From: a virus
Lineage: Duplodnaviria > Heunggongvirae > Uroviricota > Caudoviricetes
IMG/VR virus record: IMGVR_UViG_2703719355_000018
Reading direction: 5' to 3' (one strand)
DNA: 13,131 bases
How positions within the stretch are numbered: position 1 is the first letter of the stretch; the number at the start of each line of letters is the position of its first letter. Below are positions 1 to 13,131 of the stretch, piece after piece. The translations under genes and the position numbers were made by a program. The notes beneath the pieces were generated by a model. The model worked only from the letters and a program-made list of their open reading frames with translations. It made no database searches and was not told the origin of the DNA.

Positions 1-1260
1 ATGGCAAAGCTGACAGATATCCAAATCAAGTCATGGATTAAGGCAGGAGAGCGCTTCGAGGGGCGCTCTGACGGCAACGGGCTATACCTTCGCTATCGAG
101 CGGGGGATAAAGTACCTGTATGGCGTTTTCGATATCAGTTCGCTGGGAAATCACGGGTAATGCTTATTGGATCTTATAGCGAAATATCCCTTTCCAAAGC
201 ACGGGAAATAGCCAAGGAATTATCCGCACGTGTAGCCCTGGGCTTCGATGTCGCCGGGGAAAAGAAAGCGCGAAAAGCGGCTGCTATAGAAAAGATGGAG
301 CGGGAGAAAAACGCGCTTCGTGTGTCAGAGCTAGCAACCGAGTATTTCGAACGGCAGATTTTGGGACGCTGGAAACATCCCGATCTTCTGCGCCGGAGAA
401 TCGATAAGGATATCAACCCACATATTGGCAACATGAAGATAGAGGACGTAAAACCCCGTCATATTGATGCGATGCTACAGAGCGTTGTTGATCGTGGCGC
501 TCCAACCGTAGCTAATGACGTTCTGCGCTGGACTAAACGCATATTCGATTATGCTATCAAGCGTCATGCACTGGAATTAAACCCAGCTGGAGCATTTGAT
601 CTGTCAGACGCTGGCGGGCAGGAAAGTAGCCGTATGCGCTGGCTGACCCGTGAAGAACTTATACGTTTTTTCCAAGCTATGCGCACTGCAAAAGGATTCA
701 GCCGCGAGAACGAGCTGACCATGAAGCTAATCCTTTGCCTGTGTTGTCGCAAAATGGAGCTGTGCGGTGCTCAGTGGGATGAATTCGACCTTGATGAAGC
801 AGTGTGGCATCTACCAGCAGAACGCGTTAAAAACGGCGACGCTATTGATATACCACTACCTCCACCTGCGGTTGGTTGGTTGAGAGAGCTTCGCACTATC
901 GCGGGCAGTGGGAGTAAATGGGTTCTCCCCGCGCGGAAGATGCAACACCGCATGATTCCCCACATTCAGGAAAGCACACTCCCCGTGGCGCTGGCAAAAG
1001 TACGCCGCGAAATGCCAGAAGTACCAAACTTCACAATTCACGATTTCAGACGTACCGCCCGCACCCATTTAGCGGCGTTGGGTGTCGATCCCGTAGTCGC
1101 AGAACGTTGCCTGAATCACCGCATTAAAGGCGTTGAGGGTATCTACAACCGCCACCAGTACTTTGAAGAACGACGGGCAGCCCTGGAACTGTGGGCGGGG
1201 CTTCTGGTTTCGCTTGAACGAGGGGAAAACTACAATGTTATTCCTTTATCTAAAATATAA
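1..1260 (+). CDS. int: Tyrosine recombinase / integrase, P4 family (419 aa)
   Basis: ORF begins at window position 1. N-terminal arm-binding-like region (GNGLYLRYRAGDKVPVWRFRY) and C-terminal catalytic region with HDFRRTARTH and YNRHQY typical of P4-type integrases. Confidence 0.93.
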   Translation: MAKLTDIQIKSWIKAGERFEGRSDGNGLYLRYRAGDKVPVWRFRYQFAGKSRVMLIGSYSEISLSKAREIAKELSARVALGFDVAGEKKARKAAAIEKMEREKNALRVSELATEYFERQILGRWKHPDLLRRRIDKDINPHIGNMKIEDVKPRHIDAMLQSVVDRGAPTVANDVLRWTKRIFDYAIKRHALELNPAGAFDLSDAGGQESSRMRWLTREELIRFFQAMRTAKGFSRENELTMKLILCLCCRKMELCGAQWDEFDLDEAVWHLPAERVKNGDAIDIPLPPPAVGWLRELRTIAGSGSKWVLPARKMQHRMIPHIQESTLPVALAKVRREMPEVPNFTIHDFRRTARTHLAALGVDPVVAERCLNHRIKGVEGIYNRHQYFEERRAALELWAGLLVSLERGENYNVIPLSKI

Positions 1261-1276: not shown

Positions 1277-1379
1277 TATTCACCCTATTCACCTTTTTAA
1301 TTAACTTCATGATTTTAAATAATAAAAAAGGGTGAATACTTACAGTAAAACTAATCACCTTAGTATTCACCTGTTCACC
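1277..1379. repeat. Iteron cluster: TATTCACC at 1277-1284, 1286-1293 and 1364-1371, inverted copy GGTGAATA at 1331-1338, TGTTCACC at 1372-1379 (crr-like)
   Basis: Five copies of the octamer read directly in 100 bp of AT-rich intergenic DNA. From memory, TGTTCACC is the P4 type I iteron bound by the alpha protein at ori and crr. Confidence 0.6.
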
Positions 1380-6542: not shown

Positions 6543-6666
6543 AGATAATCGACAGATTAGAGAGTATTATCCATATTGAGGCTATCCCGACGGGGAGAAA
6601 AGCGACTACGCCTTGCCGCCTGCCTCCCCCATTATCTCAAGGCGGTGACGTGTAAGGCGAACGTGC

Positions 6667-7546: not shown

Positions 7547-7584
7547 TGCGATTACCTTCTCACTCAATAGCAGGTAATCGCATG
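7547..7584 (+). promoter_or_regulatory. Stem-loop covering the alpA ribosome-binding site and start codon
   Basis: 10-bp inverted repeat TGCGATTACC (7547-7556) / GGTAATCGCA (7573-7582), 16-nt loop; the 3-prime arm contains the AGGT SD-like motif and the A of the ATG. Confidence 0.5.
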
Positions 7585-7794
7585 AAATCGCAAACTTTCA
7601 CCTTTCCCACCAATGGCAACGCACGAGCCAAACAAGTGGCGCACTATCTTGGAGTGCATATCAGCACCGTATGGCGCTATGCAAAACGTCCTGATTTTCC
7701 AAAACCCCACCAGTTAACCGACGGCGTGACCGTCTTTGACGCCGCAGCTATTCGCCAATGGAACAAGCAAAAAACCGGGGGTGAGAATGCTTAA
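7582..7794 (+). CDS. alpA: AlpA-family transcriptional regulator / excisionase-like protein (70 aa)
   Basis: VAHYLGVHISTVWRYAKRPDFPKP matches the AlpA/phage-excisionase HTH signature; start taken at the internal ATG at 7582 rather than 7546. Confidence 0.85.
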   Translation: MKSQTFTFPTNGNARAKQVAHYLGVHISTVWRYAKRPDFPKPHQLTDGVTVFDAAAIRQWNKQKTGGENA

Positions 7795-8078: not shown

Positions 8079-8170
8079 CGCGATTTTATCAAGAGATAAA
8101 TACAGCGAAGCCCGGCAGTGCGGGAACACTAACCGGGCCTCTGACCAACAACGTTACGGAGACTAACGCT

Positions 8171-8371
8171 ATGGCTAAGCCGCAGTGTACCCAAACTCAC
8201 CCCAAATATCAGTATCGTTTTATGGCGCTCGATCGCGCTGACCGTCAGGCGAAACCCTGCAAAATCATTGTCGAGGCCACCAGCGAGCACGAAGCGCGTA
8301 AAGTGCTGGCTCCTCACTACATCCTGTCACTGTCCGCCGTTTTGCCAGTTCAGGAGGTGAGCCATGTTTAA
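8171..8371 (+). CDS. Small hypothetical protein (66 aa), first gene of the replication operon
   Basis: GGAG RBS 9 nt upstream; stop overlaps the next start. The 211-aa ORF from 7736 is rejected. Confidence 0.45.
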   Translation: MAKPQCTQTHPKYQYRFMALDRADRQAKPCKIIVEATSEHEARKVLAPHYILSLSAVLPVQEVSHV

Positions 8372-9040: not shown

Positions 9041-9261
9041 TGCCACGCAAACATCGCTCATCAAGCAACCTGATCAAATTAATGGAACGCCAGAAAGGTA
9101 TAGGGCGCGACGATATCCAGATCGCAGATAATCGCCCTACATTCATGCCGTACGAGCCGAACGGAACCTACGCTACAAACCGCCATACCCGCCGTATGCT
9201 ACGCAAGCTCCACGGCATCCAGGCAAAAAGAATGTGTGATCTGAAAGGAGGTCAGAAATGA
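9040..9261 (+). CDS. Small basic hypothetical protein (73 aa)
   Basis: GAGGGAGG RBS; start overlaps the previous stop (TAATG); stop overlaps the primase start (ATGA). Confidence 0.55.
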   Translation: MPRKHRSSSNLIKLMERQKGIGRDDIQIADNRPTFMPYEPNGTYATNRHTRRMLRKLHGIQAKRMCDLKGGQK

Positions 9262-11672
9262 GTGGATTCGATCACCTGATGGAGCAGGGGCAGAAACGCA
9301 CCCCTGCTCGTTTTACTGCAAATAGCTTTTCTGACCTGTGCAACGCTATTCTATCGCATCGTGTGCAAATTTCCATCACACAGGAAATGACGGATGAAGA
9401 ACGGCGCAAAGAAAAGCAGAAACTGTACTGGTTCTCGGCAACTACCCAGCAGGACGGGCAGCGACGTAAACCCGAAAACATGGCACCGTGTGCTTTCGGT
9501 ATGCTGGACATTGACGGCAGCACTCCCGGTGCAATCACAGCACTTGTACAGGTGTTCCGGCGATACTCAATGCTGGTGTACCAGACGGCCAGCTATACGG
9601 CGGATGAACCTCGTCTGCGTATTGTGTGCGAGCTTTCCCGAGCGGTTGAATCTGACTACCGCCGAGCGACAGGCGAATCCATAGAAACTTTGTTGATGCA
9701 GGAGGCTGGATTCTCATTCGCCAGCCTGGCGGATAAGAAAGCACGCTGGGAGAACGGCAGCGATTATGTTGTCTTTGACCGCAATGTATACGGCGCTCAA
9801 AGCTATTGCTACTGTCCACACACTGGAGCGAAAGCCCAGAATTACGCGGGCGCGGTAATCGACGTAGGGGCGTTACCGGAACCCGCCCAGCCACCAGCGA
9901 AGGCGGCCAAAAGCAAGGCAAAGAAACAGCGCCAGCGTGACGCCGCGGCGGTAATAGATGCTGATTTTGACGATCTGAGCGCCGGACCGGATAACTTCCT
10001 TATCGCCGACCTGCGCAGCGCACTCTGGTTTCCCTCCATGCTGCAAAAGGCATGGGACAATGGGGCGTGGATTGAGCAGGGCTACCGCCTTGCATCTCTC
10101 AAAGGCACCGATTTTGAGGACGACGCGCGGCAACTGTGGGTCGAGTGGTCATTGACCGCAGCGGATGGCTGGCCTGATGAAGAACTTGATGAAGTCGCGG
10201 CACAACGCTGGAATGGTCTCGCCCCTGACAAAACCAGCTATAAAGCTATTTTTACTGATGCTCAGGCGCAGGGGTGGAATAATCCGGGCAAATGGCGAGC
10301 AAAGGCCGCGTACATTGAGAAAATGGCCCCCAGCACACGCGGTGAACTGCTGGCGCAATATTACGGCAACGTATGCCTGAAAGCTGATGGCAACATGGTT
10401 TATCACTATACCGGGCAGGGGTGGGAGCACATCGCCGATGCCGAGTTGCGCCGCCAGCTTTCGCAGATTTTCAAAGATAACGGGGTCCCCTTTACACCGT
10501 ACGAGGTTAAAAGCGCGATTGAGGCTATGGGAATGCTTCTGCCTTTAATAGGAGAAACTCCTCGTAACCTGATTGGCTTTGCCAACGGCGTTTATGATCT
10601 CGAGGCGCAGCGATTCCGCCCCCACTGCCCAGACGATTGGCTGACCAGCCATAACGGCGTTGAATACACGCAGCCGGTTAAAGGCGAAACCCTGAAAAAC
10701 AATGCCCCAAACTTCTGGCGCTGGCTGCATCATTCCGCAGGGGGCGACTTCGACAAAATGGAGAGAATCAAAGCCGCTCTGTATATGGTGCTGGCAAACC
10801 GCTACGACTGGCAACTGTTCATCGAGGTTACCGGTGCTGGTGGCAGTGGTAAAAGCGTGTTCACGGGTATTGCACGTATGCTGACGGGCGAACTACACGC
10901 CACCAGCGGCACAATGGAGGACATGGACACCGCGCGCGAACGCGCATCTTTTGTCGGAAAAAGCCTGATCACCCTACCCGACCAAGCAACATATACGGGT
11001 TCCGGGCCGGGTATCAAGGCTATAACGGGCGGCGACGTGGTAAGGATCGACCCAAAGCACGAAAAGCCATTCCATACGGTTATTCGCGCCGTTGTCATCG
11101 CAACAAACAACGAACCTATGCGTTTCACCGAACGACAAGGCGGGATATCGCGGCGCCGGGTTATTTTCCCGTTTAACCATGAAGTGCCGGAGGCGGAACG
11201 TGATCCCCATCTGCTCGATAAAATTAAAGCCGAACTGCCGGTAATCGTCCGTGGTCTGCTGATTGACTTCGAACAGCCAGGCAAAGCCAAATCGCTACTT
11301 ATCGCGCAGCGTGATTCAGCGGAAGCGCTGCAGGTGAAGAACGATAACGACCCGATGTATGGCTTTTGCTCTTACCTGCTAGGTTTGCCGAATCCCGAGG
11401 GCATGTACATGGGCGATGGGCGCATGGCGCGAGAGCCACGCATCTACCTCTATCATGCTTATCTGGCCTATCTGGAAGCCTACGGTTATCAGAGAACCCC
11501 CACCCTACCGAAGTTCAGCGGAGATTTACGGGACACGCTCAAAGCCTTTGGTATTACTCTGGACAGTAAAAAGAGTAAAAAGGGCAAAAGATATAACGTC
11601 AATTTGTCTGACAGGGCACAAGAATGGCTGGGAGAAGACGAACTCTCAGCTGTGCCCGACACATTGCAGTAA
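9258..11672 (+). CDS. DNA primase-helicase, P4 alpha-like phage/plasmid type (804 aa)
   Basis: Walker A GAGGSGKS followed by a P-loop NTPase region (VVIATNNEP) in the C-terminal half; size and position after alpA as in P4-like elements; AGGAGG RBS. Confidence 0.88.
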   Translation: MSGFDHLMEQGQKRTPARFTANSFSDLCNAILSHRVQISITQEMTDEERRKEKQKLYWFSATTQQDGQRRKPENMAPCAFGMLDIDGSTPGAITALVQVFRRYSMLVYQTASYTADEPRLRIVCELSRAVESDYRRATGESIETLLMQEAGFSFASLADKKARWENGSDYVVFDRNVYGAQSYCYCPHTGAKAQNYAGAVIDVGALPEPAQPPAKAAKSKAKKQRQRDAAAVIDADFDDLSAGPDNFLIADLRSALWFPSMLQKAWDNGAWIEQGYRLASLKGTDFEDDARQLWVEWSLTAADGWPDEELDEVAAQRWNGLAPDKTSYKAIFTDAQAQGWNNPGKWRAKAAYIEKMAPSTRGELLAQYYGNVCLKADGNMVYHYTGQGWEHIADAELRRQLSQIFKDNGVPFTPYEVKSAIEAMGMLLPLIGETPRNLIGFANGVYDLEAQRFRPHCPDDWLTSHNGVEYTQPVKGETLKNNAPNFWRWLHHSAGGDFDKMERIKAALYMVLANRYDWQLFIEVTGAGGSGKSVFTGIARMLTGELHATSGTMEDMDTARERASFVGKSLITLPDQATYTGSGPGIKAITGGDVVRIDPKHEKPFHTVIRAVVIATNNEPMRFTERQGGISRRRVIFPFNHEVPEAERDPHLLDKIKAELPVIVRGLLIDFEQPGKAKSLLIAQRDSAEALQVKNDNDPMYGFCSYLLGLPNPEGMYMGDGRMAREPRIYLYHAYLAYLEAYGYQRTPTLPKFSGDLRDTLKAFGITLDSKKSKKGKRYNVNLSDRAQEWLGEDELSAVPDTLQ

Positions 11673-11734: not shown

Positions 11735-11836
11735 GGTGAACAGGTGCGCATACCTTAACAAAGCTGTTCACTCTAATAATTTTCTTTAATATCAGTACAC
11801 TACCCGCAATAAGTGAACAGATGGACGGGGTGAACA
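11735..11836. repeat. Iteron cluster (ori-like): GGTGAACA at 11735-11742 and 11829-11836 (exact inverse of TGTTCACC), TGTTCACT at 11765-11772, AGTGAACA at 11812-11819
   Basis: Four copies, two exact, read directly downstream of the primase gene; same octamer family as the cluster at 1277-1379. Confidence 0.6.
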
Positions 11837-11985
11837 CTTCACACCTATAGCGCGAAATATTTTAATATTTGCAGTTGAATTGCAATCCTTGAAAACAGAA
11901 ACGCGTAGCAAAACGTAGAGTGCTGAAAAAATTTTGTTGGGGAGCAGTTCAAACTGCATGAGCAATTTTCAAGCACTCCTCTTTG

Positions 11986-12156: not shown

Positions 12157-12245
12157 CCCCGCAACTTCAATTCTGTTTTGCGTGCCTGCTCCAGATTTTG
12201 CGATGTTTTTTTGCCCAGCACACTGAGAACGTGAGATACTCACAA

Positions 12246-12261
12246 CTGTATATAAATACAG
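12246..12261. promoter_or_regulatory. LexA (SOS) box CTGTATATAAATACAG upstream of dinD
   Basis: Exact CTGT-N8-ACAG consensus, 45 nt upstream of the dinD start; dinD is a known LexA-regulated gene. Confidence 0.85.
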
Positions 12262-12306
12262 TTACAGATTTACTTTCTTTGCAATCGATATCACATGGAG
12301 TGGGCA

Positions 12307-13131
12307 ATGAACGAACATCATCAACCTTTTGAAGAAATACGGCATTATGGCACTGAAGGGCAAGAATTTTGGTCAGCTAGAGAATTGGCACCGTTACTGG
12401 ATTATCGGGACTGGCGCAATTTTCAAAAGGTACTGGCCCGCGCGACTCAAGCGTGCGAAGCCAGCAATCAAGCTGCATCTGACCATTTCGTTGAAACCAC
12501 CAAAATGGTTGTATTAGGTTCAGGGGCTCAACGAGAACTTGAAGATGTTCATCTCTCCCGCTATGCCTGTTACCTGGTAGTACAAAACGGCGACCCTGCG
12601 AAACCGGTTATTGCGGCAGGGCAAACTTATTTTGCTATCCAGACCCGACGGCAGGAGCTGGCTGACGATGAAGCTTTCAGGCAACTTCGTGAAGACGAAA
12701 AGCGTCTTTTTCTGAGAAATGAATTGAAAGAACATAACAAACAATTGGTTGAGGCAGCGCAGCAAGCTGGGGTAGCGACAGCTATCGATTTCGCCATATT
12801 TCAGAATCATGGTTACCGGGGGCTGTATGGTGGATTAGATCAGAAAGCCATCCATCAGCGGAAGGGGCTGAAAAAGAGTCAGAAGATCCTGGATCATATG
12901 GGTTCAACAGAACTGGCGGCTAATCTCTTTCGAGCTACCCAAACAGAAGAAAAACTCAAGCGGGATGGCGTGAATTCAAAACAGCAAGCTAATACCACAC
13001 ACTTTGACGTGGGTAGCAAGGTGAGGCAAACCATTCAGGAACTTGGCGGAACCATGCCTGAGGAGTTGCCGACCCCGCAGGTCAGCATCAAGCAGTTGGA
13101 AAACAGTGTAAAAATTACAGAGAAGAAATAG
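12307..13131 (+). CDS. dinD: DNA-damage-inducible protein D (274 aa)
   Basis: N-terminus MNEHHQPFEEIRHYGTEGQEFWSARELAPLLDYRDWRNF recognised from memory as enterobacterial DinD; length and perfect SOS box agree; start at 12307 (GGAG RBS) preferred over 12295. Confidence 0.8.
   Translation: MNEHHQPFEEIRHYGTEGQEFWSARELAPLLDYRDWRNFQKVLARATQACEASNQAASDHFVETTKMVVLGSGAQRELEDVHLSRYACYLVVQNGDPAKPVIAAGQTYFAIQTRRQELADDEAFRQLREDEKRLFLRNELKEHNKQLVEAAQQAGVATAIDFAIFQNHGYRGLYGGLDQKAIHQRKGLKKSQKILDHMGSTELAANLFRATQTEEKLKRDGVNSKQQANTTHFDVGSKVRQTIQELGGTMPEELPTPQVSIKQLENSVKITEKK

Follow-up and report, generated by a model that had tools for sequence, protein, structure and literature searches.

An iteron array beside the integrase gene is the most likely replication origin of a P4-related phage-satellite island

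Replication of phage P4 involves two cis-acting regions: crr is required for replication in addition to ori, and the alpha protein is reported to loop ori to crr. Alpha reportedly binds the type I iterons of both regions. Paired clusters of initiator-binding iterons placed around a gene block are also known from P1 (incC and incA), for which pairing or looping is plausible; the P1 initiator is RepA, not an SF3 primase-helicase, and incA is a purely negative control locus. According to the P4 record (NC_001609), ori consists of six "type 1 repeats", all TGTTCACC, at 9310-9413, with offsets, in the sense of the alpha gene, of 0(+), 10(+), 53(-), 75(+), 86(+) and 96(+). The crr region of the same record (P4 4291-4590) is flanked by the alpha terminator and attP and is made of two 120-bp repeats, each holding five type 1 repeats that include the variants TGTTCACA, TATTCACC and TCTTCACC. 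A second point of reference is provided by the Gram-negative PICIs, whose layout is int, alpA, pri in one transcription direction and whose origin, directly 3' of pri-rep, consists of an AT-rich region between iterons; a fragment carrying pri and ori supports replication of a plasmid (PMC6092414). PICIs inserted at yicC have also been mentioned (bioRxiv 10.1101/2022.07.18.500453).

The DNA analyzed here, called the window throughout, is the whole 13,131-nucleotide stretch of viral record IMGVR_UViG_2703719355_000018. In E. coli this DNA is an integrative island located between yicC and dinD; a stretch of strain E2348/69 matches it at 99% identity, and 18 of the 5,426 complete E. coli genomes carry it. 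The features that frame the island are the following.

1-1260, plus strand: P4-like tyrosine integrase (int) with an Arm-DNA-bind_3 N-terminal domain
6575-6642, plus strand: int-alpA RNA motif (Rfam RF02996, 41 bits, above the gathering score)
7582-7794: AlpA-like regulator
9258-11672, plus strand: alpha-like primase-helicase of 804 aa, with an SF3 helicase and, C-terminal to it, a winged-helix domain
11343-11630, plus strand: coding part for primase residues 696-791, homologue of the P4 alpha winged helix
11988-12009, plus strand: attR core, TTGTACCCAA twice, right end of the island

The att core sequence TTGTACCCAAGAYTGTACC is found at both ends of the island, the attL copy lying 60 bp 5' of the int ATG, just beyond the window edge (E2348/69, L001 13922-13940). 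From left to right, int is followed by an iteron array (site A), the cargo, the int-alpA RNA motif, the AlpA-like regulator and an Icd-like gene, then by small ORFs, the primase-helicase gene, its terminator, a second iteron array (site B), attR and chromosomal dinD. This is the Gram-negative PICI layout (int, alpA, pri, unidirectional). The order is also collinear with that of P4 (ori, regulatory genes, alpha, crr, att), from which it differs by the absence of the late region and by the cargo inserted between the ori-like site A and alpA. Searches of the island for nucleotide similarity to P4 cos, sid, delta and psu were negative, and it is therefore not a full P4-like satellite; the best reading is a P4-related, Gram-negative PICI-like satellite between yicC and dinD. 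The int-alpA RNA motif, found in all five relatives tested, sits 5' of a 272-aa gene that precedes alpA, and 5 kb of cargo parts it from int. A LexA box, CTGTATATAAATACAG, is present at 12245-12260, just past the right end of the island and 5' of chromosomal dinD (12295-13131).

The first base of site A is located only 16 nt past the int stop codon (1258-1260), and the array is built as follows.

1277-1379, plus strand: site A, 103 bp, P4 ori-type array of six iterons with the order ++-+++ relative to the primase gene
1277-1284 and 1286-1293, plus strand: iterons 1 and 2, both TATTCACC, in tandem, 9 bp start to start
1294-1330: spacer of 37 bp, 89% A+T, candidate DNA-unwinding element
1331-1338, minus strand: iteron 3, TATTCACC, inverted
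1352-1359, plus strand: iteron 4, degenerate copy TAATCACC
1364-1371, plus strand: iteron 5, TATTCACC
1372-1379, plus strand: iteron 6, TGTTCACC

An earlier note on this DNA had described four copies of TATTCACC and one of TGTTCACC within 100 bp here, and all five are indeed present (at 1277, 1286, 1331 and 1364, and at 1372, respectively). The description has to be amended in two respects, as the copy at 1331 is inverted and a sixth copy, the degenerate one at 1352, had been missed. Counted from the first base, the iterons start at offsets 0(+), 9(+), 54(-), 75(+), 87(+) and 95(+). The sequence TRTTCACC occurs seven times in the whole window against 0.64 expected, a number reached in 0 of 200 dinucleotide-preserving shuffles of the window; five of the seven fall within site A and the remaining two, at 11735(-) and 11829(-), both belong to site B. 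Since all occurrences are confined to these two clusters, the octamer is not distributed across the window, and the even density that the earlier note had named as evidence against its own reading is not what we observe. Nearest-neighbor energies place the least stable 40-bp duplex of the entire island (rank 1 of 11,971) at a window that starts at 1286 and spans iteron 2 and most of the 37-bp spacer. The equivalent window also ranks first in two relatives (L005 and L018) and is among the three least stable regions in a third (L017). Such a low duplex stability would fit a DNA-unwinding element.

These features allow us to compare site A with both replication sites of P4. In the P4 record, TGTTCACC bears the annotation "ori type 1 repeat" in ori as well as in crr, which supports the identification of this octamer as the P4 type I iteron made in the earlier note, and TATTCACC is an annotated natural variant within P4 crr. 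In a global alignment, site A and the reverse-complemented P4 ori agree at 71/100 positions (z=8.8 against shuffles); for the two P4 crr units the figures are 64/91 (z=8.0) and 60/92 (z=6.7), and in the wrong orientation z drops to about 0. Site A thus aligns with crr, as the earlier note had proposed to check, and aligns better with ori. P4 ori and site A have in common the octamer family, six iterons in the order ++-+++, a 103-bp span, offsets that agree within 1 bp, an AT-rich spacer after iteron 2 and the orientation relative to the alpha-type gene, the inverted iteron being at offset 53 in P4 and 54 in site A. With P4 crr, site A shares iterons that include TATTCACC and the succession of a tandem pair 9 bp apart, a spacer and an inverted iteron. 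It is worth noting that a tandem iteron pair 9-10 bp apart is also present in P4 ori, P4 crr and three relatives (L012, L017 and L018). However, a P4 crr unit has five iterons in the order ++--+, is located 3' of alpha and is usually duplicated, whereas site A is a single unit of six iterons; P4 crr lies between the alpha terminator and attP, a location that fits site B, whereas site A lies beyond int; and, unlike the spacer of site A, the P4 crr spacers are not especially unstable (ranks 626-906 in the P4 helical-stability scan, against 88 for the ori spacer). In this respect, the spacer of site A is closer to that of P4 ori. The term "crr-like" used in the earlier note for the array at 1277-1379 is therefore correct as far as the P4 alpha-type iterons are concerned, and has to be revised for the layout, which is that of P4 ori, the crr-like array being site B.

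A survey of viral contigs with the tandem pattern TGTTCACNCTGTTCAC returned 120 loci, 58 of them with a P4 alpha-like gene; this search is biased toward P4-like sequences and defines the P4 signature, not its frequency. In the P4-like contigs, arrays of the ++-+++ type (n=35) are without exception 5' of alpha and in the alpha sense (35/35), at a median distance of 1,657 bp; all but two of them are exactly as long as site A, 103 bp (33 of 35). These ori arrays comprise 23 distinct sequences, which share offsets of 0/10/53/75/86/96, with TATTCAC variants common at position 1. Arrays of the -++-- type (alpha sense; n=41) are found at a median of 66 bp 3' of alpha and correspond to crr units. With its span of 103 bp, its ++-+++ order and its alpha-sense orientation, site A carries the P4 ori signature as defined by this sequence survey, and site B that of crr. 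As a class, site A is a known kind of element, a probable P4-type origin, in an unusual position.

Site A departs from P4 ori in several features, most of which count against its assignment as a P4-type origin. All the iterons of P4 ori are TGTTCACC, whereas this exact consensus accounts for one of the six in site A, the other five being variants (four TATTCACC and one TAATCACC). P4 ori-type arrays lie about 1.6 kb 5' of alpha, beside the vis/PLL region, whereas the gap between site A and the primase gene amounts to 7.9 kb. The cargo, flanked by site A and the alpA/primase operon, parts the array from the replication operon, unlike in P4; the placement of the cargo between the array and the replication module had been correctly stated in the earlier note. 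Lastly, the P4 type II repeats (CAYTTAAAG, three times), which stand beside P4 ori, are not enriched in the window and none is found near site A.

The second array, absent from the earlier note, is located between the primase gene and the right end of the island.

11735-11836, minus strand: site B, crr-like partner array, iterons around an AT-rich spacer
11735, minus strand: site B iteron TGTTCACC
11765, plus strand: site B iteron TGTTCACT
11812, minus strand: site B iteron TGTTCACT
11829, minus strand: site B iteron TGTTCACC

Site B starts 62 bp past the primase stop codon and ends 151 bp ahead of the attR core. It is a single unit with the iteron order -+-- and is retained in the relatives L005, L007, L010, L011, L012, L015 and L019. 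Its position and orientation suggest that it is the counterpart of P4 crr. The same position is also that of the PICI ori. Integration places the arrays at opposite ends of the island, with about 1.35 kb from attL to site A and 151 bp from site B to attR; excision as a circle brings them to about 1.5 kb from each other, with attP and int in between.

We therefore have to consider a reversal of roles, in which replication fires at site B and site A is an accessory site bound by the primase, acting either as a crr-like positive enhancer or in negative copy control through handcuffing or titration, as P1 incA does. This is the serious rival, and we regard it as possible while giving it a rather low likelihood. 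It draws on the position and design of site B, which are those of the PICI origin, a region 3' of pri-rep (PMC6092414), as well as on how closely site A and the crr units align (64/91, z=8.0) and on the fact that most iterons of site A are off-consensus. However, the number, order and spacing of these iterons fit P4 ori better than crr, no duplex of the island is less stable than that of the site A spacer region, whereas the spacer of site B ranks 116 in the same scan, and the orientation of site B and its distance from the primase gene are those of P4 crr. We consider it probable that site A is a P4-type origin, with site B as its crr partner and the primase-helicase as initiator.

Relatives were collected by searching a protein database for full-length homologues of the primase and then retrieving the contigs that encode them; a search of genome contigs with the primase gave one locus, related through the N-terminal domain, and a single-protein search of viral contigs also gave one locus. 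The informative loci, with percent identity to the proteins of the window, are the following.

L005, Salmonella: primase 94%, integrase 96%; site A and site B conserved
L012, Serratia fonticola: primase 72%, integrase 80% over the last 41 residues only; site A and site B conserved
L017, Xenorhabdus: primase 56%, integrase 29%; site A and site B conserved
L018, Providencia: primase 56%, integrase 29%; both sites a mixture of TGTGCAC and TGTTCAC
L013 and L020, Salmonella: primase 62-64%, integrase 65% (L013, C-terminal 237 residues); both sites with TGTAYACC
Altered arrays: L013, about 800-930 and 12515-12625; L018, 4382-4496 and 12469-12590

Five further loci (L007, L010, L011, L015 and L019; primase 66-86%) keep site B, their int being out of range or off the contig. 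In L005, L012, L017, L018, L013 and L020, site A is found 17-72 bp past the int stop codon. The plan (+)(+), AT-rich spacer, (-)(+)(+)(+) is intact in L005, L017 and L018; in L012 the third, inverted iteron is degenerate, and L013 and L020 show a matching design with an altered iteron. Such preservation bears on the idea that site A is a decayed, non-functional relic of an ancestral P4-like origin, as might be thought from the single consensus TGTTCACC among its six iterons and from the loss of the P4 late genes from the island. We hold this to be very unlikely, given that arrays from five genera (Escherichia, Salmonella, Serratia, Xenorhabdus and Providencia) agree in position, iteron count, orientation and AT-rich spacer although the flanking non-coding DNA diverges, and that the iteron variants co-vary with those of site B.

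Wherever the iteron sequence shifts, it does so in site A and site B together (L013, L020 and L018), and this concerted change implies that one protein most likely reads both. The integrase is an unlikely candidate for this role, as judged from the independence of the iterons from integrase and att divergence: L017 and L018 have integrases of 29% identity (31-34% in the N-terminal domain) and unrelated att cores and keep TGTTCAC iterons, and L013 keeps the att core of the window (TGTACCCAA twice) and the P-arm motif GTAGCAAAACGTAGA with different iterons. The same observations weigh on the proposal that the repeats are integrase arm-type sites, or excisionase/AlpA sites, serving site-specific recombination. 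This proposal would account for an array adjoining the gene of an integrase with an arm-binding N-terminal domain and for the presence of site B in the P arm, 151 bp from the core. It leaves unexplained why about 1.35 kb and the whole of int separate site A from the core, why the iterons persist next to 29%-identical integrases and different att cores (L017 and L018), and why they are altered in L013 when the att core is not. Moreover, the arm repeats of P4 Int are ATGCCCCC-like and unrelated to the iteron (P4 record), and GTAGCAAAACGTAGA is the better arm or excisionase candidate in the window. A recombination role for the iterons is in our view highly improbable. The motif GTAGCAAAACGTAGA itself, at 11905-11919 and about 70 bp left of the attR core, is kept in L013, L015, L019 and L020, even where the iterons are different, and is a candidate integrase arm-type or AlpA/excisionase site.

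A host factor could also be imagined to read the octamers, for example as weak DnaA boxes, GTATTCACC agreeing with the DnaA box TTATNCACA at 7/9 positions. However, neither array contains a DnaA box with one mismatch or fewer, and the number of such boxes across the window, 10 against 10.7 expected, shows no enrichment; furthermore, the relatives carry TGTAYACC or TGTGCAC in hosts whose DnaA has the same specificity. There is hardly any reason to retain this explanation.

The presumed reader and initiator is the 804-aa protein, in which the domains D5_N, DUF5906 and Pox_D5 are recognized and which is 43.5% identical to P4 alpha across residues 314-791. Its residues 696-791 match PDB 1KA8 with E=6.2e-16 and 98/100 residues covered; this structure is the P4 alpha C-terminal domain, described as a DNA-binding winged helix. 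For the binding of alpha itself to type I iterons we draw on the annotation of the P4 record, on 1KA8 and on the P4 literature. Comparison of the recognition-helix residues with the iteron type revealed no simple code among the relatives compared: the pattern FVS.L.GT is common to P0005 and to P0012, which is of the TGTAYACC type, yet L019 (P0005) has TGTTCACC-type iterons. The lack of such a code counts against the primase as reader of the octamers. Residues 1-350 of the primase (9258-10310), which have no Pfam match, are unrelated to the N-terminal third of P4 alpha, a DnaG-type primase domain (PMC2777425). They share 57-71% of their residues with the N-termini of DUF927-domain proteins and 31% with APSE P3, which points to domain shuffling among initiator families.

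Based on the above data, we propose that site A is most likely the replication origin of this P4-related phage-satellite island, and the locus as a whole is best read as a P4-style replication site made of two parts, one of them site A, within a Gram-negative PICI-like island. After induction, the 804-aa primase-helicase would bind the T(G/A)TTCACC octamers via its C-terminal winged-helix domain and assemble on both flanks of the 37-bp spacer. Melting of the spacer, loading of the protein as an SF3 helicase and priming of DNA synthesis would follow, and site A would cooperate with the inverted site B 3' of the primase gene. The sequence of the arrays, their layout, conservation and concerted variation and the domain homology of the primase are observed directly; that the primase binds the arrays, that the spacer melts and that site A acts as ori and site B as crr is what we infer from them. 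A primase-helicase that bridges both arrays might conceivably double as an architectural factor, either in joining attL to attR during excision or in switching the activity of int and attP with the replication state; we mention this as a long shot, which, if true, would couple replication and recombination through one cis module of about 1.8 kb.

Site A resembles the origins of Gram-negative PICIs and SaPIs in having two iteron sets around an AT-rich region. It differs from them in location, as the PICI ori is immediately 3' of pri-rep whereas site A is 3' of int, site B being at the PICI position; PICIs are described with one array 3' of pri, whereas the family of the window has two. To see how unusual this is, we turn to a second survey, of 80 viral contigs whose proteins have related helicase and C-terminal domains (47-57% identity), in which iteron calls allow one mismatch, exact 7-mers having missed even the positive controls. 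The iterons 3' of the primase gene in these contigs are varied (GGTATAC, GTGTTCA, GGTAGAC, GTAGATA and GTGCACA), and several of the apparent "second arrays" probably arise from the palindrome GTATAC being counted twice. A second array directly after int was found in 0 of the 49 surveyed contigs with an upstream int and a callable iteron, and the same procedure detected the array after int in all five scored family loci (the window and four relatives). L003, an unrelated PICI with shared cargo, has its GGTAGACA iterons only 3' of its primase gene. The array adjoining int is, on the evidence of these sequence surveys, a trait of the island family of the window. Gram-negative PICIs have been described with a single origin; this family keeps a P4-style pair of sites, which offers a testable link between the P4 and PICI replication systems. 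The natural iteron variants (TGTTCACC, TGTAYACC and TGTGCAC), together with the related winged-helix domains, provide material on DNA recognition by alpha-type proteins, and the 103-bp ++-+++ pattern is an origin signature usable in genome annotation.

Site A also marks the fixed left edge of a cargo-exchange slot. The start of the cargo, 1572-2400 (2400 being the end of the query), is 98% identical to positions 13001-13829 of L003, a PerC-type PICI of other E. coli strains, in which the homologous cargo genes run on further downstream, past the primase and PerC genes. The common segment starts at 1572, beyond site A and the first hairpin described below. As this cargo is shared with an unrelated PICI, it moves between different islands.

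The Rfam models of C4 antisense RNA and isrK detect relatives of the P4 CI immunity RNA and of its seqA target. They match in the distant relatives (L013 7907-8245, L017 8370-8588 and L018 8695-8910); the window has no C4 or isrK match, its one weak, sub-threshold match being symR-like (8104-8176, minus strand). The same kind of scan identified no RNA family overlapping site A.

Two strong hairpins with T-tails, at 1451-1478 and 1573-1603 on the minus strand, are located between site A and the first cargo gene, with no minus-strand gene close to them. We considered site A as a terminator of int and rejected it, these two being the only terminator-like hairpins nearby and both on the minus strand. 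One possibility is that they shield site A and int from antisense transcription, another that they act bidirectionally. About 25 bp past site A, at 1404-1416, is the motif CCYTGCCYG, followed within 0-2 bases by AAA; no common RNA structure was found at this motif. It is present in every family member (L005 2715, L012 290, L013 959, L017 2315 and L018 4523), with a second copy inside the cargo of L013, L020 and L017, and may be a module-boundary or protein-binding site.
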